Shown here one piece after another: positions 1 to 57,714 of a stretch of DNA of 64,000 nucleotides. Below the pieces are notes generated by a model, which saw nothing but the letters and a program-made list of their open reading frames with translations, did no database searches and was not told the origin of the DNA. Origin of the DNA: Isurus oxyrinchus (taxonomy: Eukaryota); assembly GCA_026770705.1 (NCBI GenBank), contig JANJGN010000018.1, positions 620,001-684,000 of the forward strand. The letters run 5' to 3'. Every line of letters starts with the position of its first letter. Positions within the stretch are counted from its first letter, which is position 1. A program made the position numbers and the translations under genes.

Positions 1-1129
1 GTTCTCTTTCAATCTCTCTGAGGCAAGGGTCAAGTTTTGTTATGCTGGTTATGTGTTAACTATTTCTGGGGATATGTCGGGGTGCATTGCCAACCCAGCT
101 TCTCCCGTCACTCCTGGCTCCACACAGGACTTCCGATTTCCCTTCCTCTCATTCCTGTGGCAGTCACATCACATTCAAGTAGAAGTGCCTAGGAGTTTGA
201 ATGAGAGATTCAGATATTTTTCGCAACAAGAATGTTAACCTGCGGACAATTGAACTCTGAAACCATGGTCACAGGGCAGGGAAATAATTTACAATCTAAA
301 CAAAAATTATGATATCTGACATTTATACTTTCTAAAGCATTCTATGAGTGAAATTGAGTGAAATTATGTTGGAATTTTCAGAAGTCAGATAATTAAAGGA
401 AAACTCAAGAAGCTGAGCCAGGAGGTTCCCGTCCATCAATAGATTCACGCTGTTTGCAATTCACTTGAGGATGTTAAAGAGGTTCATACATTTTTCCCGT
501 TATTACATTTCATCAGCAGATGCTCAGCCACAATGTGGTCTAAAAGCCAGAAATTTCCACCCTCTACAATTTTCAAAGAAACGAGGAGATAATCGTTGAA
601 GTGTGCAAAGTTTGCAATCATCATCTGAAAGGCTGTAAAGAAGTGACATGTTGTTGTTCTGTGCTTCCGATAATCTATTTAATGTCAAATTTCCAGAAGG
701 CAACTTTTCTTTCGGGTATGCCTCTTTGTTTGTGGAATAGTCTTTGTTAGGTTCTGCATATCTGGTTTTGTAATCAGTAAATTTGTATCCCTTCATTTGA
801 CATGTAGTCTGAGAATAAAATCTGCATTGTGACCGCTTTAAGCATTAGGGAACTGGAGAGGTAATTCACTCCTCCTCAGTGATGCATGTTACGGCAGTCA
901 GTATAGAACTTAGAAAATTGATAAATTAACCCACATCACACCCCCGTTCATACTAGAACTTTCAGCTCAGGTCTCTCCAAGTCACGCTCATCTGCCCATC
1001 ACATTTGTATTCTCCCATCGCCCATGTGTTCTCCAGTTATCCCTTTGCACTGTACTCACTTTTGGGAACGCACACTAAATCTGACATGACCCTCAACCAT
1101 GCCTAACCTCCCTTCTTGCCTTAAGATTT

Positions 1130-1790
1130 TCAAAATATTTTTTGCCTGTGCTTCCTTCTAATCTATCACAGGCCTGATCATATGTTCGTTTAGATTCATG
1201 TAAATCAATGCATCACTGACACAGTAAATCTTTTGAAGCTATCAAACACTAATGGATCAAACTGGTCACTTATTTCCACACTTGAACATGTAATTCCTCT
1301 GTATTCTATAAATGCTCTTCATCATTTTATAAAATTCAGTTAGTGCACCCCACAGCTCCTTAGTTCCAATGAGAATTACAGTAGCCTATCGAATCTCCTC
1401 ATAGGTGCAATCATGCAACATTGATGCAAACTCCTCTGCACTCTCTTCAGGGCAAACAAGTTATTCCACTAATATGGTGACCAGAAGAGATCACATAATT
1501 CCAACATATGCCCTAAACAAATTTGCAGAAGAGTTGCCTCATCACATTCCTGCTATTGCATTCAATAACTCATCGTAAATAGGAAAGCACAGCAAACGCT
1601 TTCCTCACTACCTAGTCCACCCTTCTGGGACATTCCCTCCAAGATCGCTGACTTCCTTGGACCATTTCAAAAGCCTCCCAGTTTATTCATTTGTCTGCTT
1701 GCTTTGTTTTCCCTCCAAAAATGCATTTTACAACAGGTTTCTTGTTACAATGTCATTTGTCGCTTTTCTGCCCGCTCAACCAAATTATTG
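1130..1790 (-). mobile_element. CR1-type LINE, decayed 3' (RT C-terminal) fragment
   Basis: + strand text such as ctcctctgcactctcttcagggcaa...atatggtgaccagaa matches the reverse complement of the CR1 ORF2 3' region seen in other copies in this window (e.g. 28.7 kb). Confidence 0.6.
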
Positions 1791-2991
1791 ATATCATTCT
1801 ACACACAGTCATTCCACGATTGTCCCTATCTCAGTCACCCTGCCCGCACAAATGCAGCCCTTCCACCCAACCCTCTCACCCGCCCTAGTAACACGCGCTG
1901 CCTTCTCAGTCCAGGATAGTCCCTATTCGATTCTCTAACCGCAACACCCATCCCGCCTCATTCCCCGTGCCTTCTAAGCCCAGGGTTGGTTTCCTTTTGA
2001 ACAATAAGAATTAACTTTCAAAGTTCCATTTCTTCATTCCCAGCAATCTCTCTCTGTCTTTCTCTCTCGCTCTCTCTCACTATTTCTCTCCCCCTCCGAA
2101 AGCCCCTCCAAAATTTCTGTACCTGCTGCACATTCCTAAAGGAATGTGGGTATGGGGCATTTCTCGTGAGCATGGAAATTATGCATGGTCCCCAGTCTCC
2201 AGAGAACACGGATCTTTGGCGTTCAGCATTTTCCCCAACGCTTTGCCACCCTCTCCCCGCCCTCTGTGTTGCTCTTTCTTCATGTTGTCCATTAATCTTT
2301 CCTTTCTATAGGGAAGGCTGAAGGCTTTTTGTACTCACAGTAAGATCGTGCAAACAGCAAGGTGTTCGTCTCCAGTGAAATATGTCCCAGTGATGTCCGT
2401 GGAAGTGGAAAATCTAGTCCAGAATGTCAGGCAGCAAATAAAGCAACGTTTTGAAACGTCCTAACTTTTTGAGCCCCAGGCACAGGTTCTGCACTAGAAC
2501 CTCAGGATCAAGAACAAGGGCCAATCCAACATAACAATCCCTTGCATCTAAGATCACCGCAAACCATCCCAGACAGATCTAAAACGGTCAATTGGCAAAC
2601 GCGAACGATTCCTGCCCAACACTCTAATATTCCTAGCTCTCCCCATCATCAGGACTCTTCTCCTGCTAAAGTGCTTTCTGTACACAGTGCGGTAGCTGAC
2701 TTGAATGAAAACGCTTCAGCTGAATTGTTAAAGTAATCTACCAACAGCAGCAGGATTTAATCATTTTGTCACATGCCTAGAGTGGCCCTATAGTGAGAGG
2801 AGGCGGAGCCATGCTGGCGGGCTTACGGTTTGAAAAATAACCTCAGCCACAGCCACGCAGAGAGGCCAGACCACAGCTGAACCGTACATACACACATCAG
2901 ATAAGTCAGTTGTTAGGACTACGTGAACATATCGTGCAGGGATGAATGAAACAATATGAATCAAATGCTGTGAGGGAAACAAAGTAGCACT

Positions 2992-4752
2992 ATGGAACTC
3001 GACTGGGGATCCACGGAATCCATTACGAGGTTTATAGTGGAACAACTTTCAAAGTACTCACTAAAATGCAGAAGAAGGAGTGCAACACAGTTGGAACCAC
3101 CCGGAGATAAAAAAAAAAGGTGGTAGGTAGAGCAAAAAAATATAGAACGAAAAGGTGGTTATTATCACACTGTACCTACCTGAGAAGAGTCCTGAAGATG
3201 GGGTGAGCTAGTAATATTAGAGTGTTGTTCAGACGGGTCAATATTTAAAATTTTCGATTAGAGAGAGAGAATTAAACTCACATCCAGGAGAGATCTGACC
3301 ACTCGCAGCAGCAGCCTGCAGTGACGCTGATCAAGAGGGGGAATTCTTCAAAGGAGAAACCTATGAAGGAGCTGAGGCAGTTCCACCCTCATATGATCCA
3401 ACCACATTATGTTGCTCATTGAATCTCATGGCCTCTATGGCAATAAACGTTTGGAAAAGAAAAGTCAGGAAAGGCGAATGAAAAAGTGAAGAGAATAAGG
3501 GGACCCCGGGCTGGTGAGCGGATGAGGTATTGAGAGGTTTATAAAGAATGATAAGCACGTACCATTCAGCCCGTGGGAGACGCATTTTTTTCAACAATTG
3601 CCAAGACCTAAAACTCGGCATGACAAGCCAGATTTTTGTACCAAACTGCGGGAAATGTTAATTATCTATGAAATGCCATCCCCCCCCCTCCCCCCCCCCC
3701 CCCTTGATACTCAAGTATACTTGAAGGCTAAGTGCCCAGGAGATATTAAGGAAGATTATCCCTTAAGTTTAAGAGTGGAGAGTGGGCGAAACCAGAAAAA
3801 CTCCCAGATCGTGATGAAGTGAAATAACTGCACAGGGAATTTGAGTGGGCAGTTCAGGAAGCATTGGGTGAGGGGAAGAAAACTGGGGGTGTATAGCATC
3901 CGTGTTGCAAAGCAAGGGTGCGTCCATAATGGACCATGAAGAGTGAAAGTGGCATACATATGTTCAATTTTGAAGACAACTGCATCCTCTGCTGGATGAC
4001 GAGTTCTTCATGAAAATTTTGAAGTAAGTGTTTGGATCGTAACACCAGAAGATTATTAGAAAGTGCCTCTCAGTAGGCGGGAATTATATGGATATTTGAC
4101 TGGGCAACGGATTTGAAGTTGCAGGGGACAAATGGGGCAGCCCCTGTGGCTGCGGTAAGTCTATGGCTAGAGTTTTATAAATGTTGAGGGGAGTGGTTTA
4201 CAGCCAGGGATTGGAGAAGTGGACAAAAGGGGCTGGTAGAAATTGGGTTGCGATATATTAATTGTGGCAAGAGATGGACACCTTCGGAATGATTGTTGGG
4301 CTCTGGGAACAGGGGTGGGAAGGCCAGAAAACAGGGGTCTCACACAGCCACAAGGAATTGCCGCCACTCCGGTTCAAATGCTGTTGATTATGGATGAGAC
4401 CCTGAGACTATTCCAGGGCCCGTCAAGACAAGCAGAGACAGTGCTTGCCCAAGGGATATCCAAAACCAGGGACCCATGGATGTTTGCTGACGCAATGTTA
4501 GGGGGCCAGCATTGCAGAATATTCATAGACACCGGGGCGTCCATTTCAATTACGGACCTGGACCTGCAAAGTACGAGCGTTACCATCACAGTGACAAAAG
4601 TAAGCTGGGTACACATGTGGGCGAGACAAAGTGAGATCACACCCTTAGAAGTAGGAGGACTGATCGTCCCTATACAGATTTGGGTAGGGCAAACTAATGA
4701 GAGGAGTATTATGGGGATGGATATTGTAACATATTTAGGGGCAGTTAATTAG
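2992..4752 (+). pseudogene. gag-pro: gag-protease remnant of the provirus
   Basis: Possible start MELDWGSTESITRF at 2992; AVPPSYDP late-domain-like motif; frameshifted CCHC knuckle (..NCG../GHLRNDCW); ORF 4243-4752 carries the aspartic protease motif FIDTGASIS and the C-terminal SIMGMDI motif. Confidence 0.8.
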
Positions 4753-4949
4753 CCTACAGGATGTTATGATTATTATGCGAGGTCCACTTAAGAAGAATCG
4801 TGCACTGATTCTCCAATGCAGTGTGCTCAAAGTGACAGAGTTAAACCAAGAAAAATGGAGGCAGTATGAGGAATGGGATGTCTGTGTCAGTAAATTGCAA
4901 GGGATCGGACGTGCCACAAACACGACGGCAAGGTTAAAATGATCCCACA

Positions 4950-5937
4950 GAGATTTCTGGTCCAGAACACCCGACAAGAAAACTAGCCCATTTATGCAGA
5001 GGCTCCAGATGCAGTGAGTAACTTAATGCAGAGCCAAGAGCAAGATGGGATTATGAGGAGGACTCAGTCCGCCAACAGTTCCCCTATGTGGCCCGTTTAG
5101 AAACCAGACGGGTGATAACGATTAACAATTGACTATACATCTTTAACCACGGTGACACCAAATAGTAGCAGGCCTTGCCACTATATTCAATTACCTAGAG
5201 CTGAGCCACACAGTCTTTTCGGTCCTAGATGTGGCTAAGTGATTTTGGGCGATGGTCTTGGATGAGTGGACCCAACATATTTTGATTTGATGATCGGATA
5301 CACAGTATACTTGGACACAATTGGCTCAGGGTTTCCACAATAGTCTAGGCATTTTTCATGGGGTAATGTGCGATACTCTGAATCACGCAGAACCTGACCA
5401 AGGCACCATAGTGATCCAATACGTGACTAATTTTTTGGTTGCGTCAGACACAGCCAGGGGCGCTGTTGCAGAGTCTAGAATTATTGGTAATGGCCGAATT
5501 TAAAGTCAGTGTAATGAATGCTCAGTTGGGAAAACGGAAGGAGCAGTACTTGGTTTATGTAATATCACAGGGGAAACGCGAAATTCCCCGTAGTCAGAAG
5601 GAAGCTACAGAAAGAATGCCAGGAGCCATAGATGTGCTAGGGGTTAGGCAATTTTGAGATTGTTTAATTTCTTTACGGCCTTTATTGATGTTTTTTTCCA
5701 AGTTAGCCACTCACATACAAGAATTGGTAAATGAGGGGAAAGCGTTGCAAGATTGGATAGAATGGGGTGAGTAACAAGCAACTGTTTATATGGCACTAAA
5801 ATGTGCACTTAGCCAAACCCCAGCTTTCCGGTTTTCCTGCATGTGCAAAGTCTTTCATGTCTATACACATAATGAGTGGTAATTCTACAGTGCGGTGCTG
5901 ACTCAAGAGCACCCGGATCGAATGAGACCCGTAGCAT
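4950..5937 (+). pseudogene. pol: Retroviral-type reverse transcriptase plus tether remnant
   Basis: NSSPMWPV*KPDG**RLTIDY (~5070-5140), FSVLDVAK*FW (~5215), QYTWTQLAQGFHNS (~5303), QYVTNFLVAS (degenerate YVDD, ~5417), and VLTQEHPDRMRPVA* ending at ~5937. Many stops and frameshifts. Confidence 0.85.
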
Positions 5938-5939
5938 AA

Positions 5940-7410
5940 ATTAAATGATAATGTACAGGATGAACTGGTACATGTAGCCTTGAATGTATCCAGTTTTGCC
6001 ATACTCCAGTGGAGTGCAATCCACACCCAAACACTTTATAAGGCTCTGAATATCTATTTGATGGCTGAAGCGGTAGATTTTAACGACGGGATGCGATCAG
6101 GCCCAGAGGGGGACCGAGTTAAAGGACGCTACCACGTTATTCAATACAGGGACATCAATAGTTAATTCGATCGACCTAGCAACTGTAGATCACAACGTGT
6201 GTACACTAAGCTTTAAGCTTAAGGATATTTTGAGGCGGTGACAGTGGAACCAGGATACTCAATTAAATATAGACCAGTATGTGACGCTATTAATTCAAAG
6301 CCTGGATTCTGTGCTCGAAGGTCATGCGACAAATATCAATAATTTAAGTGAAATAGGGAAAGATATTTCAAACGAAGTGAAAAGAAATATTGTATGCAGC
6401 AGATATGGATCTTGGGCACTGGACCAAGAACAAGACAGGTTAATGAAGGGGTAGTTCATTTATTTGTAACTAATGAGCATTTATTGATTCTCTCATGACA
6501 GTAGATTCATGACTTGACCCGTTGCCAGCTCAGAGGGTAAACACGCTAATATAGAATGAATGTTGAATGTGTAGTGAATAGTAATACGCTAATAGACATT
6601 GTATTAGTAATGCCATCATACGTATCTCAACCCCCAGCAGGACATTATATAGAGTATAAAATGTTGAGGTTATACTGGGGGATAACTGTGTTAAGAATCA
6701 AATTATTCCGCCATATGCAGTAGACAAAGAAAGAAACATAGTTAGCTCCACAATTGAAGCGTGTAGCATAGAGATGGCCACAGTAGCATGTGTACATCCG
6801 AATTATGAGATGGAGGAAGCAAAGTGTGGGTTGAAAACAGCCACAAACTTTACAAAGGAAACCATATGGGCTGCAAAAGAACTGAACGCTGATGAATCTA
6901 CAGGGAATTGGGGATATTGTACAACATTGTAGCAGGAAAGAATGCATTATGGGGGCAACCAAATATGACCCATCCACAATCATTCAGTGTGCCTACACCC
7001 ACAGGTGCCAGTAAGGTTGGGAAATGTGGAACTCGTTGAAATATACAAGAGACGAATGACTACTATTCTGATAAAGGAGTGCTTTAACGACAACCTGAAA
7101 CGGTATTTGAACCAGTTCACCTATAAAATTCCTAATTTACCAAGGCATCTGACAGCGATTCGGGAACAGTCTCAGCCGATAAACAGAACTTACTATATAC
7201 TGCAGCAACAGAGTAGATCCATCAAGATGGTTATTGAACATATAGATTTTTCCACATGGTGGCAGGATCAGTGGTAATGGTGCTTGAATGAACAGACACA
7301 CTCCTGGATTCGAATTTTCTCCCGTGCCCCAGTTACATTTCAGCTGATATTGATTATGAATCTGACATACTTGATTCATCGTACCCAGAAGTTTCAGAAA
7401 AGGTGAGATT
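5940..7410 (+). pseudogene. env: env-like glycoprotein remnant
   Basis: Lies between pol and the PPT. Contains an Arg-containing possible cleavage region followed by GTELKDATTLFNTGTSIVNSIDLATVDHNV (fusion-peptide/HR1-like), Cys-containing segments at 6.5-7.0 kb, an HR2-like helix ending IEHIDFSTWWQDQW (ORF 6987-7277) and a hydrophobic TM-like stretch at ~7330-7380. Confidence 0.6.
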
Positions 7411-7620
7411 GGGGAGTTCGAGTAAATGGAGTAGGAATCTGGTAAGCCAGAGTTTCGGATTAAAGGACCAGAAGATACGGATTGTTTGACCAGTACAAAT
7501 ATCCTTTACCTGCCAAAGCTGGATCGCTGGCCAGTGTCAGCTGGTGGCGGTGCATTAGGAGAGAGTGAGGTTTCGTAGTCGACACCACTGTACTTGGCTA
7601 CCTTGTGCTAGACCAAGGGC

Positions 7621-7631
7621 GAAAAGGGGGG
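7621..7631 (+). other. Polypurine tract (PPT)
   Basis: GAAAAGGGGGG lies 2 bp before the TG start of the LTR. Confidence 0.8.
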
Positions 7632-7633
7632 AC

Positions 7634-8231
7634 TGTTAGGGGGAAATAAAGGAATACAGTAATGGTCAATGGACTTGACTTAAAATATCCCAGCATGAAA
7701 AACAACGATTTCTAAGCAGTTAACATTTAAAATTCAGACTGCGACAGCAAGACTGCAGAACCTTCCACATTCACAGGGCTTGCAAGCATCAGCAAGTCCA
7801 TTTTGTAAGAAAAAGAACGTAAACATGAATAAATTGGGAGCTTAGGGATTTGGAATGAGTAATGCAGTCAGAGGATGGCATTAACTTAGAACTTTGATTA
7901 AGTGTGCTGTTTAAAACATAGGGGAAGTACAGATAGTCCCAACTTAGATATGCAGGCAGGTCTCTGCCAGAGGGAAGGTGGGGTCAGATGATGCATGTAC
8001 ATTTGTACCAGAGACTTGTTTGTTTAATGTAAACCTATATGGTTACGAGATCAAAATCTGGAAACTGTTCCCGTTAGTGACCAATAATGCATAAAAATGT
8101 TGAAAACATATATTTTAACAGAGTACTGCCTCAAGCTACATTGAAATGGTGTCCTCCTTCCATTTGCTCGAAAAACATTCGTAACCTGTACCTAAGTCTC
8201 CTGTGGTATGTTCATCAAAGATCCAATAACA
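7634..8231 (+). repeat. 3' LTR (~600 bp)
   Basis: Starts TGTTA directly after PPT+AC and ends TAACA (terminal inverted 5-mer, TG...CA rule); unrelated LINE sequence follows. Confidence 0.7.
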
Positions 8232-8279
8232 TGGAAGCTTCGACTTGAGAGCTTCCAATGTTGGGGATCCGCAGTAATC

Positions 8280-8730
8280 TCATACCTGAACAATTCCGGC
8301 TAAGCTCCAATAAGAATTCTAAGCAAAACACAAACAGGACAGGGACGAGAGGTCAGCATTGTCTGACGGCAGATTTACTTGGAAAACAATTTTATTCACC
8401 TTCCTGATTAAAATAGTTCTAACAATGTTTCTGTAGAGCACTTTAATCCAATTGTGGATTCCCTCACTAAACCCCATTATGTAGCTCACATACATCATGC
8501 AGGTGTTCAGCAATCTGTTAAAGAACTTGTCCTGGATGAGAATGATGCGGCACTTCTCCACACTCCCGTGTTCCACATAGGTAATTGTATCCCAGAAGAA
8601 AACGATACTATCAGCGAATTTCTTGCCAGGTACAGCACAGTCCTGGACAATGTGGGTCACCAAATCCAGAACAGATCTGACCCAATTGACAGTGACCTTT
8701 GAAATAATCTAATAGTTCACATTCAAATGC
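8280..8730 (-). mobile_element. L1/Tx1-clade LINE RT fragment
   Basis: ORF 8319-8663(-) reads VPGKKFADSIVFFWDTITY...IQDKFFNRL...MGFSEGIHNWIKVLY, resembling the Tx1/L1 RT segment VPGR.I.DN...D...LDQEKAFDRV..MGF...WI..LY. Confidence 0.65.
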
Positions 8731-39126: not shown

Positions 39127-40008
39127 CTAACGTAATTACAATTGTGATACTTTCGAGCGAAAACTGTGATCTCACCAAATGTATCACGTGTTACCTGGTG
39201 GCCATAGCAGTGGCGGATCTATCTCATCGTTATCCTGGACCTGATACGGAAACACATTCCAATTGTTTTTTGATGAGCAGTTTTGTTTCTATTATTCGAT
39301 CAGCGTGTATAATATCCACACCGTCCTGCTTCATGCAGCCACTGAGTATTCCGTCTGGATCACCGTCACTTTCAACTTGAATCGATTTGTGGACATTTTG
39401 TGCCCGAAACTGATACTTAAACATTGCAGCGAGGAAACAGTGGCTACGCTTGTGGGAACAGTGACTGTGCTGAGCAGCTTAAAAAAATATATTTTCTGGT
39501 ATTTTATGCACACAGGCTCGTATTGGCTGATGAATTACCCCAGATTTTGTGTTGTCACACTCAATGTTCAGATCTTTCCGATCTGGGTAATAATCGAGTG
39601 CCACAATCACATTCTGACCACGTGTGTCCCATTTGTTCTGATTCTGCTGCTGAAAGTTCTCAGTAGCAAAGCCCGCAGGAGACTTCGAGATCACAGCAGT
39701 GAGGAGAGTCCCAGAGACCGAGAGATGGAGAGTCGAATGAAAGCATAATTTTGTTGTATGTGATCTCGGCCAATTTCATCCTGTTGCGGTCAACGTTAAT
39801 GGTGTTTTCGATATGGAGCCGGATTTGTGATTTGCGCTTTGATTCTGTATAGTTAGATTGGTTTGTTGTGCAATTGGGCTTCATGCTGCTGCTCCTGAGC
39901 TGCTGCACTAACACTGTGATTTACACCGTAACACAGACTCAATTCAGACAGCACTTGAAAAACGTGCTGAAATATCCCTTTACTAAAACTCTTCATTTCA
40001 TTCAATGA
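39127..40008 (+). pseudogene. GPR139-like rhodopsin-class GPCR pseudogene, main coding exon
   Basis: Acceptor ttacag at 39121-39126, then NVITIVILSSENCDLTKCITCYLVAIAVADL, YNIHTVLLHAATEYSVWITVTFNLNRF, HILTTCVPFVLILLL, ARRRLR...DREMESR and LLSCCTNTVIYTVTQTQFRQHLKNVLKYPF..*; frameshifts near 39220-39260 and 39745, in-frame stop at ~39850. Confidence 0.88.
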
Positions 40009-47200: not shown

Positions 47201-48514
47201 TTCTGTGTGTGACTGTTCATATGAATGTATCTCTATATTAAAGGATAAATTTGAAGCTCGTGTATGTCTTTATACAAAAACACTCCCCCGTATCTCGATC
47301 TTCTTATCACCATCAGACAAAGCCTGGAAACAGCCCTCCACCACAGCCAGCTTACATTCATTAAAATGAAAGAAGTAAAAGCCCAGGCATGTCATTAATA
47401 TGAATTGATAAAATTAAGTTAAAATGATGCACTGCCCTACAAAATCTACATTTTAAGTGATTCATTTCGATTTCTGAAAATATAAATACGCATGCATCAA
47501 AGTTTTCGGCTCAGCAAACCTTTTCCATTGCTCCAGCTCCCTATGTTGCAACATGAATCATACAATAGATATTACAAAATAATCACCTGCATAACTCAAA
47601 ACACATGAGATATGATTACAACCGAAGAGTGTTATTCAATATTACCTCCCCAGTCACTTAAAATATCCAACGAGGAGATTGTTTAATGTTTCATTTAATG
47701 GTAGGATCTCAACACCTGTTTGCTGTAACTGATAATATTATCTCAAGTAATCATCTCGATCCTCTCACAGCTCGACCAGGTGTTCAATTATGGCAGGAAG
47801 CTACAGCAACTTCATTGCATATATTCACTAAGCTTCCACATGTTTCTGTCTTGCACTACATTTAGCGCTATTATGGCTATGATTCTTCATGAATCCCTGC
47901 TCCAGAAGCCCTACGGGTCTCTCAGGCCATAAACAGAATGTGGATGGTGTTAGTGAGCATTTCAAATTCAACCCATTCAGACATCATTTCCTGTTTCTCG
48001 TAACACATAGCTCGCCCTCTCATCCATATGCAACATGATTAAGCTTACACATCGTCTTCTCTCGCTCCATAGTTCAAGTTCCTTCTGTAATGTTAAACCC
48101 ACATGTCAGATCACAATGCCTTTCCATCCTATAGGGAGACAGTATTTTACCCCTTCGAGAGTTAGAGCCTACCTGACGGTTTCCTACCATATTATTCCAG
48201 AAATTCACCGCATATGGTGAAATATCATTTTAGTGAGCATGGTTATACCCCCTCCCACATCGCTATTCTTCAACCCTAAAAGCTGGAAGTTTTGTCAGCC
48301 CTCGCAGCATTACAGGAAAGCGAAGTTTCAAACTCAGGATCTTAACAATGGACCTTACCGCTTAGCTGAAATACAGTGGTGCTGCTTTCAAATTCATGAA
48401 AACCCTTCAAAATAGTCTTTAGTTACACATGAGGATATTTCCCCTTCAGATATTAGTCTCATATTTTGACAGAGCAAAAGATGGCCCGCACATCTTCCAT
48501 GGCAGTCCCCTTGA

Positions 48515-56010: not shown

Positions 56011-56582
56011 TCAGACAGCCAGTCTGAAGCTCACTAATATGTGTCTGATGGTGAGAACGTTGAGAAGCAAAATCAGGACAAATGGGATGCACGGTGTTAG
56101 AACGTGATGGAGGAACTCAAGTTTTATATAGAACAGAGAGATCTGAACACCGAATATGGCATAACGAAACGAAAGGAAATTCCTCAGCAAATAACGACCA
56201 TTGAACAAAAAATAGAAGAAAATGATTTTTTTAAACAGATCAGCACAGTCACTATTCCCAGAACCACAGCCGCTATTTTGTTGCTACGATACTGAATTTT
56301 CAGCTTTGGGCAATAATTGACCACAATCCATCAAAGGTGAATGTGACGGTGAACCAGACAGAACAGTGGGTGACTGCATTAAGCAGGACCGTGTGGATAT
56401 TACAGACGGGGATGGACTTCAGGAAACTAAATTATTCATTTAAAACAATGGGAATGTGTCTTAATATCAGATCGAGGATAACAATCAGCAAATTAGCTAT
56501 TGCCATGGCCATGAGGTAGCAGGAGAGGCATTTGGTCAGCCACAGTTTTTGAACTTTAATATCACTATTGTGATCACGTTTT
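56011..56582 (-). pseudogene. Second GPR139-like GPCR pseudogene (TM1-TM5, 3' part lost)
   Basis: - strand acceptor ttctgtacag, then NVITIVILKFKNCG/KCLSCYLMAMAIANLLIVILDLILRHIP...PVCNIHTVLLNAVTHCSVWFTVTFTFD and HHVLTPCIPFVLILLLNVLTIRHILVS; stops and frameshifts; collinear with 39127-39670. Confidence 0.85.
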
Positions 56583-57714
56583 CTGTACAGAACAACATAA
56601 TGAAACTTAAAAGCATGTTGATGAAGATGGTGAAGATTGAGGAGTTGTGTGTATTGTCAAACGTGTGATTGCTCCCAATGATTTATCAAAATAAATGGCC
56701 AAAAATAACACATACAAAGTTTTTTGATACTTTGGAAGGAGGTCGACATCAAATAACATGCACTGTAACAGGGGAGGAGGAGAGGGAGAGGCAATTGTGG
56801 TTCTAGACGTAATAGGACTTCACTTAGATGATAAGAGCGAATTGATAACTGGAGTACTCAGGTTTAATTGGAGACGTCATGAGTGACGTAGTGTCATGGG
56901 CGATAGGAAGAACCTGAGGTGTTGAGTGTGTTCCGGAAACGAGAATGTAGTAGGCTAAATTTTCCTTTTCCTCTCTTCTCTAATGAATGAACGCAGATAT
57001 GTTTCTTAGTAGATGTTTTAATCTCCGCCAGTGCTGTAGTTTTCAGAACAATCGCATATAAGACTTTCTGGTAATTTTATGAAAACATATGAAAAGATTA
57101 TCATTTAGTATTACAAAACCAGAAAAGCAAAACTTAAGCAACCACTCCTTAAATATAGAGGCAGACAAGTAAGAACATTTTTTTCATAAAAATGTGATAT
57201 GCACGTTGATTTCTAAAAAAAAATAATCGGACATAAACAGGTCACATTTCAGCATTCGGTCAGGTTGCGCTTGAAAACTTTGCAGGGCTGAAGGGTTAAT
57301 TGTTCCTTTCCTACTGAAAAATAATCTCTGTTGCGGAATGCTTAAACAAAAATCCGATTCAGCATGTCCGTTAACAAATGCTTTATACTGTTATCCTAAA
57401 ATGTCTCCCTGTACTGTGACAATGGTGTCAGGTTTCCATTGTGTTCACAAAAGAACATTCACGTCATGAAAACCTCCCAGTCTGTCCTCAATTCTCCCAA
57501 CAATTCCTCGGGAACGTGAGGTGACAGTAACAGACGTATTGGGAGAAGAAGACGGGGGGACAGGGGTGTTGTGGGTGGTAGTGAAGGGAGCCAGAAGTGA
57601 CAGAGGAGGCCGAGGTCACACGTCCAGCTGAAATATCCTCAGCTACAGAAAACTTGGCCCTCATTCAATTGGGGAGAATTGAAAGGGAGCTCCTCCCCTA
57701 ATGTGGGAATTACA

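Follow-up and report, generated by a model that had tools for sequence, protein, structure and literature searches.

In the window (the whole 64,000-nucleotide stretch of DNA that was analysed), positions 2792–8231 of the forward strand hold a dead provirus with gag, protease, RT, env, a polypurine tract (PPT) and a 3′ LTR. Every feature that an earlier note on this DNA had listed was recovered in its place. The alignment to L021, a full copy of the same family, begins at window position 2792, which equals position 2599 of L021 and lies about 330 nucleotides beyond the L021 primer-binding site (PBS). A leader remnant extends from 2792 to 2990, and the 5′ LTR and PBS are absent from the window copy. 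Immediately 5′ of the truncated end there is an inverted copy of 51 bp of gag (3182–3232), at 2612–2662 on the reverse strand, with arms that are 90% complementary. This piece is a rearrangement scar, and it is the only proviral match in 1901–2800.

The gag pseudogene, located by tblastn with the Heterodontus protein P0002, runs from approximately 2950 to 4480, with PPSY at 3383 and two CCHC knuckles, both decayed, at about 4180–4300. It is followed by an aspartyl protease remnant at 4480–4750 (DTG at 4528), whose gag-asp_proteas match (E 0.007) is below the cut-off. The RT and the first half of the tether, or connection domain, occupy 4940–5938. Despite many stops and frameshifts and a decayed YxDD, the motifs SP.WPV, KPDG and LTIDY can be read at about 5079–5135 and YTWTQLAQGFHNS at about 5306–5344.

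At 5938–5941 there is a deletion junction where about 2.6 kb are gone. Window 5934 equals L021 5674 and window 5941 equals L021 8284; positions 5934–5938 align to the RT tether and 5941 to Env residue 226. The deletion removes the rest of the tether, RNase H, integrase, the Env signal peptide and an N-terminal Env region of about 190 amino acids. What remains of env, a pseudogene of F type at 5941–7412, corresponds to residues 226–724 of a paralogous open frame (58–62% identity, in four pieces). Over 476 aligned codons the frame is broken by 9 stops and 9 frameshifting indels. This remnant carries TTLFNTGTSIVNSIDL, WW and a TM-like end. It is followed by the PPT at 7621–7633, a purine run that also precedes the 3′ LTR in 10 two-LTR copies, and by a 3′ LTR of 598 bp (TG...CA, 7634–8231) that is 70–84% identical to the LTRs of other copies. 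Apart from the inverted gag piece, these parts lie on the forward strand.

The gag, CCHC, RT motifs and Arg-containing junction described in the earlier note are present, but the knuckles, YxDD and the cleavage site are decayed here and intact in paralogues. The short N-terminal segment of Env, which had been read as part of an F-type layout, is a product of the 2.6-kb deletion, by which the first 225 or so Env residues were lost. Duplicates of the window copy (89–91% identical) cover P0001 as follows: RT 0.98–1.0, tether 0.45, RNase H 0 and integrase 0. The window copy lost its 5′ end and the RNase H–integrase part first and was duplicated together with host DNA later. On its own, the window provirus is an ordinary fossil.

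The family and its fuller copies

The genome gave 152 env matches among the 150 scored of 2,846 candidates, so the window env is not a chance resemblance. The family is a large endogenous retrovirus family with thousands of candidate copies. Its layout, as read from paralogues, is LTR, PBS, gag, protease, RT, tether, RNase H, integrase, env, PPT and LTR. The PBS matches tRNA-Ser, zf-CCHC is found in two stretches in L022 (E 2.9e-9), and the RT of L021 has YVDD (RVT_1 E 1e-27). Both of these paralogues have a tether and a second RNase H, and the integrase of paralogues is followed by a W.GPY (GPY-like) motif. Of 10 copies read for a target-site duplication (TSD), four show one of 5 bp; it has one mismatch in one further copy, reads as 4 bp in another and is unclear in the rest. 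Copies mostly lack pol, and by inference this majority would have been spread by a helper. The best named homologues come from Heterodontus, Mustelus, Chiloscyllium and Rhinoraja, which makes the chondrichthyan host proposed earlier likely.

Placement among the retroviruses

RT trees were built from 68 rows (a quick tree only) and from the 36 rows left after 32 redundant ones were picked out by hand and dropped. We take the viral contig L107, by its length, to be the snakehead retrovirus, and L076 and L108, by their length and layout, to be viruses of the WDSV type. The family falls inside Retroviridae at 97/95, and its eight rows form a clade at 99/97, on a weak backbone. A clade of gamma- and epsilonretroviruses (98/95) excludes the family. 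In the PDB the best RT match is foamy virus (E 7.5e-39), then MLV, then Ty3. Both results agree with the earlier reading of a retrovirus-type RT. As in Retroviridae generally, the RT is monophyletic with known retroviruses, the RNase H is dual and env follows integrase.

The RNase H of the family scores 41–71 bits against gammaretroviruses, at most 34 against foamy viruses and at most 26 against the loki-type P0014, and the RNase H tree separates the family from foamy viruses. This domain is of the gamma/epsilon type and not of the foamy/loki type. Loki integrase is described as close to CGIN1; among the named classes that were compared, loki and CGIN1 not being among them, the family integrase scores highest with fish and epsilon rows.

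An env-bearing Ty3/Gypsy element of the errantivirus kind can be discounted for practical purposes. Although Gypsy env and Baculo_F clusters are among the ESM Atlas neighbours of Env, the RT scores rank Ty3 behind foamy virus and MLV, the family has a tether and second RNase H, unlike the single-RNase H Ty3/Gypsy elements, and the Gypsy RTs of the same genome (best match Ty3, E 5e-41) are a distant outgroup in the RT tree. The tree and the dual RNase H refute it. Class I ERVs (gamma/epsilon) are likewise rejected, with the RT outside the 98/95 clade and a TSD of 5 bp in the 4 of 10 copies, class I having 4 bp. ERV3 and ERV4 are defined (PMC4299795) by no zinc knuckle, no GPY/F motif and a 5-bp TSD; two zf-CCHC stretches and W.GPY after integrase contradict this definition, and the TSD alone fits. 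For Spumaretrovirinae and FLERV, the RT lies outside the foamy clade (in trees without the fish FLERV and CFEFV rows), gag has CCHC, and the RNase H is not of foamy type.

The earlier note had suggested a chondrichthyan lokiretrovirus. Lokiretroviruses share with the family the LTR-gag-pol-env layout, a tether and second RNase H, an aquatic vertebrate host and an F-like Env that carries a signal peptide, an RxKR site, a fusion peptide, a coiled coil and a TM (PMC7947760). The tether and second RNase H are common to all retroviruses and are therefore not diagnostic. The AU test does not reject a grouping of the family with loki (p=0.08), and so RT placement alone is not decisive. However, P0014, the one loki-type RT in the comparison (assigned by eye from motifs, with no loki integrase or Env beside it), is excluded at 97/95 from the Retroviridae grouping that holds the family. 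The family RT also lacks SRWP and CPFGY.NSP, the loki motifs found in 8 of 9 supplement passages of PMC7947760, the ninth having a decayed form of both. That paper groups loki RNase H with foamy, unlike the gamma/epsilon-type domain seen here, and the two loki Envs compared have F2 straight after the signal peptide, in contrast to the N-terminal extension of about 190 amino acids in the Env of about 720 amino acids in this family. The six chondrichthyan genomes located in the table of the same paper are unmarked for loki, including Chiloscyllium punctatum, which owns an Env homologue. Finally, none of the 150 scored of 19,215 candidates in the genome has an RT more than 43% identical to P0014. 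We consider a chondrichthyan lokiretrovirus, or a sister group of the lokiretroviruses, quite improbable.

A stronger contender is that the family belongs to a shark or fish lineage that has already been described (the SnRV-like clade Huo/CmiERV lineage I, the basal clade Mu or the foamy-like FLERV), with its F-type Env merely unnoticed. To this we give somewhat less than even odds. L107 is the sole viral contig confirmed with the RT patterns of the family, and its Env is homologous; foamy virus is the best PDB match of the RT; and a 5-bp TSD is compatible with ERVs outside class I. Clades Huo and Mu, both broadly drawn, include ERVs of cartilaginous fish. The snakehead retrovirus, Huo and CmiERV-I resemble the family in their position outside classes I and II, in the zinc knuckle, in an integrase with a GPY-like end and in an Env that is homologous (hhalign 92%) (PMC4422223; PMC6001957). 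However, both RT trees, which were built without CmiERV, FLERV or CFEFV sequences, set the family apart from L107, from ERV-L-like rows, from crown foamy viruses and from the epsilon/gamma clade. RT identity to L107 is 39%, and the two are not sisters on the weak backbone of these trees. The two zinc knuckles and the GPY-like motif exclude ERV3/ERV4 as defined. Foamy viruses share the F core of Env, but the family differs from them in its gag with zinc knuckles, in its RNase H and in having no receptor domain between the F subunits (PMC11468914).

We prefer the reading in which this locus is a dead provirus with an internal deletion, one of a large ERV family that is likely of a shark and likely an unnamed lineage of Retroviridae rather than loki, with an Env predicted to have the paramyxovirus-F fold. 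We put this at roughly four chances in five. Of the two proposals in the earlier note, the better fit is the second, an env-bearing lineage, here one that stands outside the named genera.

The envelope protein

The Env of the family, as read from the open frame of paralogue L047, is a type I membrane protein of about 720 amino acids. A signal peptide is followed by a Cys-rich region of about 190 amino acids with a Pro/Thr linker, an F2-like part and an RxKR site. After this come a fusion-peptide-like segment, a long heptad helix, beta-rich DI/DII-like domains, a second heptad, WW, TM and a short tail. The fold model was built on this natural open frame and not on the broken window copy (pLDDT 71.7, pTM 0.49). 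Among the 233 PDB matches that Foldseek gave at E<=0.001, RSV F (E 1.8e-10) and the F proteins of hPIV3 and Nipah rank at the top; TM-scores do not exceed 0.45. VIA gave Z 11.8 over 317–348 residues, in a range (Z below about 13) that long helices can also yield. ESM Atlas placed Env with Fusion_gly, Baculo_F and Gypsy env clusters at 0.93–0.94. The F-type Env of the earlier note is borne out by the RSV and hPIV3 matches, and we regard Env as predicted to have the paramyxovirus-F fold. The predicted fold and the order of elements are like those of paramyxovirus and pneumovirus F (RSV, hPIV3, Nipah, NDV), but identity is 8–13% and the Env of the family has the extra N-terminal region.

BFVD matches of Env were WEHV-1 Env (2e-8), WDSV Env (4.7e-7) and feline foamy Env (4.4e-5). 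With hhalign, the Env profile matched the WDSV-type Env at 96.3% (E 1.6e-9, 445 columns) and the Env of L107 at 92.5%, against 0.5% for a gamma-type control; in a reversed-sequence control of 173 ORFs the best E was 0.35. Pfam searches with Env and 41 homologues found no PF00523 and no family beyond coiled-coil or chance-level matches, and PDB sequence and profile searches found nothing significant. A search of proteins clustered at 90% with Env returned solely two fbxo15 gene models of Heterodontus, into which env sequence is incorporated. The Env alignment contains no stretch conserved enough to scan viral contigs. A gamma-type Env is ruled out by the lack of ISD, CX6CC and TLV_coat; as the earlier note had seen, none of the three frames of 5936–7410 has CX6CC or an ISD-like motif.

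By analogy with class I F proteins, furin cleavage would free the fusion peptide, and the trimer would refold to a six-helix bundle, fusing membranes. The N-terminal region would, on the same analogy, likely bind a receptor. Its single-sequence model is unusable (pLDDT 33.7), its Atlas score is 0.76 and Pfam gave no match. One homologue, P0045, has a weak V-set match (E 0.045).

The Env of walleye epsilonretroviruses is described in a review as distinct and not of gamma type (PMC9967133). The Envs of walleye WDSV and WEHV are homologous to that of the family across the whole ectodomain up to TM (hhalign 96%), and the RNase H is of the same type. In contrast, the family RT lies outside the epsilon/gamma clade, the PBS matches tRNA-Ser, Env has 727 codons against 1,229, and no accessory frames were noted.

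Since this family combines an F-type Env with a non-loki RT, and since that Env is homologous to those of epsilon, snakehead and foamy type, the F fold must be widely distributed at the base of Retroviridae. It follows also that an F-like Env is no diagnostic for lokiretroviruses. In the loki paper (PMC7947760), four ways in which retroviral env may have arisen were left open. The present data favour an ancestral F-type Env, with gamma- and beta-type Env replacing it later. If this is true, the F fold would be the ancestral retroviral fusogen.

An open env in a decayed provirus

One paralogue, G000:C40, has an env that is open over 727 codons. The insertion lies at about 8,927,600–8,935,330 of C40, next to genes for histones H1 and H3. 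Across the four pieces of its pol there are 25 stops, and its LTRs share 81% identity. The dN/dS of the C40 env branch is 0.14, the lowest of 34 copies, and ranges over 0.11–0.18 against 0.51–1.53 for the two nearest sister copies, whose dN is about twice as high. The provirus around C40 env is old and dead, whereas the env frame has stayed open, under apparent purifying selection. A 283-nucleotide contig of a second organism (B) has two differences and no gap relative to C40 env, the nearest paralogue being at 89%; the putative orthologue in B is represented by a few short contigs without flanks, none of them full-length. Two presumed-RNA runs hold only short env pieces, mostly paralogue-like, that bear on C40 expression neither way. 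Low dN/dS is also seen on branches with pre-insertion viral divergence, at 0.17 for L024 and 0.22–0.23 for C6.

C40 env might be open by chance, or a younger functional copy might have restored it through recombination or gene conversion. With 2,846 candidates the family is large, the stop rate of other copies (154 in 19,264 codons) predicts only about 6 stops in C40 env, so that some copy could escape, and purifying selection on the virus before insertion depresses dN/dS on long branches. However, stops and frameshifts together predict about 15 breaks (a calculated P of about 3e-7 per copy), and the rate from C40's own pol predicts about 20 from stops alone. All 36 other env copies counted (33 + 3) are broken, the nearest two sisters carry the doubled dN given above, and no env donor closer than 89% to C40 is among the 40 scored of 274 candidates. 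We find an open frame without host selection unlikely.

We consider C40 env a candidate for host capture, and probably a genuine one. What is new here is this unbroken env in a ruined provirus, which was likely retained for host use. Since it retains the furin site, the fusion peptide and the TM, we lean towards a fusion-competent protein rather than a receptor-blocking restriction factor. The full proposal, tentative at just short of an even bet, is that a shark domesticated an F-type env whose protein would act as a syncytin-like fusogen or as a restriction factor and would belong to another fusogen class than the gamma-type syncytins. Its source would be an unnamed retrovirus lineage with an Env homologous to those of walleye, snakehead, foamy and loki viruses. 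A literature search of papers open without subscription found no host-kept F-type env in cartilaginous fish. If true, C40 env would offer a concrete case, open to testing, of possible env capture beyond the bony vertebrates. The co-opted foamy env of geckos (PMC6669660) is a precedent, a host-kept env with the F core under purifying selection, env-only and more than 96 My old; unlike these env-only genes, C40 env still sits inside its decayed provirus.

The window provirus and its family

Three-frame translation and comparison with fuller copies place a plus-strand provirus at ~2792-8231 of the window. A leader remnant (from ~2792, recognised by comparison with L021 and other fuller copies of the same genome) is followed by gag (PPSY at 3383) and protease (DTG at 4528), both read by three-frame translation. 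Translation and alignment to fuller copies delimit the RT with half of the tether, ending at 5938, and env directly after it (5941-7412). A PPT (7621-7633) lies 3′ of env, and then a 598-bp LTR (TG...CA, by comparison with fuller copies) runs to 8231. The gag, protease, RT, env remnant, PPT and LTR described in an earlier note are thereby confirmed. The 5′ LTR and PBS are absent from this copy, an inverted gag piece of 51 bp lies upstream, and all genes are broken, env by 9 stops and 9 frameshift indels per 476 aligned codons. Relative to L021, ~2.6 kb is deleted at 5938/5941, with the loss of RNase H, integrase and Env residues 1-225. The short N-terminal Env segment of the earlier note does exist, but it is an artefact of this deletion and not the native layout. 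As a provirus the window copy is unremarkable, a fossil of a probably unnamed F-env retrovirus lineage.

The flanks and the deletion are common to three other loci at 89-91% identity, which suggests that host segmental duplication multiplied this copy. The duplicated unit is window 1-8720, with partners L029, L030 and L031 on contigs C402, C392 and C18 (at 1.61 Mb). L030 carries an inverted-repeat insertion of ~2.9 kb at its 5′ junction, whose frames look GIY-YIG/Penelope-like by their motifs.

The env piece of the window gave 152 matches among the 150 scored of 2,846 genomic candidates. Two fuller copies, L021 and L022, have the complete layout: two zf-CCHC, RVT_1 with YVDD, tether, RNase H, zinc-binding and core integrase, and env. 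Among 27 loci picked by env (L021-L040, L058-L064), 2 are complete, 3 are of the window type and 22 have no RT in the 10 kb taken per locus, which points to a large gag-env subfamily that is non-autonomous. The copies with two LTRs that were measured extend over ~7 kb. LTR pairs are 84-98.5% identical; of 10 copies, 4 show target-site duplications that read as 5 bp. Three of 11 copies carry the PBS TGGCGTAGTCGGCAGGAT unchanged, and the others have altered forms of it. The complement of this PBS occurs at 68 genomic sites (0 for the control); four of these were scanned, and three were called tRNA-Ser.

RT sequences show at least four further retrovirus lineages in the genome (L110-L123, L160-L161, L164, L168); the L160 RT lies in a frame that stays open for 1,165 codons. 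A second F-type env fragment in the window, at 47551-48355 (-), has 25-28% identity to Env homologues (E to 1e-15). No gag or pol was found near it, and by its sequence it appears to represent another, distant env-bearing family. Two GPCR-like pseudogene fragments, 73% alike, were seen by eye at 39245-39748 (+) and 56052-56587 (-); Pfam gave no significant match for either.

An F-type Env

Env was analysed via paralogue L047, whose natural open frame of 727 codons shares 58-62% identity with the window remnant. The L047 Env has a hydrophobic N-terminus, a single RDKR site at 284, a TM near 696, 18 Cys, 10 N-glycosylation sequons and no CX6CC. Sequence searches of Pfam and PDB found no match. 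A model of residues 205-648, aligned with 29 of 42 homologues (pLDDT 71.7, pTM 0.49), matches RSV F (E 1.8e-10), hPIV3 F and henipavirus F in a Foldseek search of PDB structures, and reaches Z up to 11.8 across 317-348 residues by VIA; the ESM Atlas is in agreement (0.94). No TM-score exceeds 0.45, since the comparison is of a monomer with long helices, and the N-terminal region of ~190 aa gave no usable fold prediction. The modelled fold indicates that the Env of this family is F-type, and the earlier note was right in this. By analogy with established class I F proteins, Env would be cleaved by furin, insert its fusion peptide and refold to a six-helix bundle.

F-like matches of the model in BFVD include WEHV-1, WDSV and feline foamy Env. 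Over 173 retroviral ORFs, the Env profile found WDSV-type and foamy Envs and did not find gamma- or delta-type Envs (best E 0.42; reversed-sequence control, E at least 0.35). With hhalign it gave 96.3% for the WDSV-type Env, 92.5% for that of a SnRV-length virus and 0.5% for gamma Env. The aligned exogenous fish retrovirus Envs are L108:5962-9648 (WDSV-type) and L107:6131-9532 (SnRV-length); from genome length and layout we take L076 and L108 to be WDSV and L107 to be SnRV. An F-type Env does not imply a lokiretrovirus. The relevant part of one review terms epsilon Env only 'distinct' (PMC9967133).

Placement of the lineage

The earlier note had suggested a lokiretrovirus-like lineage. RT scores in PDB run foamy > MLV > HIV-2/Ty3. 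An RT tree of 36 rows (LG+C20+F+G4), with Gypsy RTs from this genome as the root, places the window RT and L021 in a 99/97 clade with P0002 of Heterodontus and three further proteins. This clade falls outside gamma+epsilon+delta (98/95), crown foamy, ERV-L-like rows and L107. P0014, termed loki-type because its motifs match by eye those of loki RTs in the supplement of Wang & Han 2020 (PMC7947760), comes out as the sister of every other row (97/95). In this tree the family lies within retroviral rows, not with Gypsy and apart from the loki-type RT, although grouping it with P0014 is not rejected in an AU test (p=0.08) and the tree backbone is weak. Independent markers likewise lead away from loki. 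The family's RNase H is gamma/epsilon-like, whereas, in the relevant sections of PMC7947760, that of lokiretroviruses groups with foamy; the N-terminal Env extension of the family is missing from two loki Envs compared from that paper; and six chondrichthyan genomes in its table are unmarked for loki. The loki reading is probably wrong. ERV3 and ERV4, as defined in the pertinent part of PMC4299795, are excluded, since the family has zinc knuckles and a GPY-like motif. The lineage is probably an unnamed one, and it may overlap with the CmiERV, FLERV or CFEFV lineages. A search of the open literature showed neither an F-type Env described from a non-loki shark ERV nor a shark env described as captured; Calcraft et al. 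2024 or CFEFV work may cover part of this.

A candidate captured env

The part of the family most worth pursuing is the L047 env on contig C40, at L047:760-2943 (-; ~8,928,250-8,930,430), an unbroken frame of 727 codons in a dead provirus. The LTRs of this provirus are 81% identical across 447 bp, most of gag is deleted, and the four pieces of pol that align to P0001 contain 25 stops. At the rate of 33 other env copies (154 stops and 247 frameshift indels per 19,264 codons, where blastn may inflate indels) ~15 breaks would be expected, and ~20 at the rate of its own pol, counting stops alone. Its nearest relatives, on C17 and C1, have 9 and 13. By distance-only three-point estimates its branch has the lowest dN/dS of 34 copies (0.14, next 0.25), and among nearest relatives it stands at 0.11-0.18 (bootstrap 0.08-0.28) vs 0.51-1.53 for C17 and C1. 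More distant copies also reach 0.17-0.23, so viral selection before insertion could contribute to the low value. A 283-nt contig from a DNA sequencing run on another organism, B, has 2 differences and no gap against this env, the nearest paralogue in the window genome being 89% identical over that match. The match may reflect an insertion shared with organism B. We put the chance that the C40 env is a host-captured gene at roughly two in three. It adjoins histone H3 and H1 genes.

The best named homologues point to a probable shark host. For RT the source is Heterodontus, at 60%; for Env, among the 10 of 42 matches for which names were looked up, the sources are Heterodontus, Mustelus, Chiloscyllium, Rhinoraja, Pristiophorus and frogs. 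Full-length Env homologues, from a further shark and from frogs, are P0023 (Chiloscyllium, 739 aa), P0026 (Pelodytes, 723 aa) and P0055 (Mantella, 677 aa, in a cluster of 16 members); those that are sole members of their cluster may be young envs or additional captured ones. Two Heterodontus fbxo15 gene models (P0016, P0017) contain ~145 residues of this Env, through either mis-annotation or exonization.
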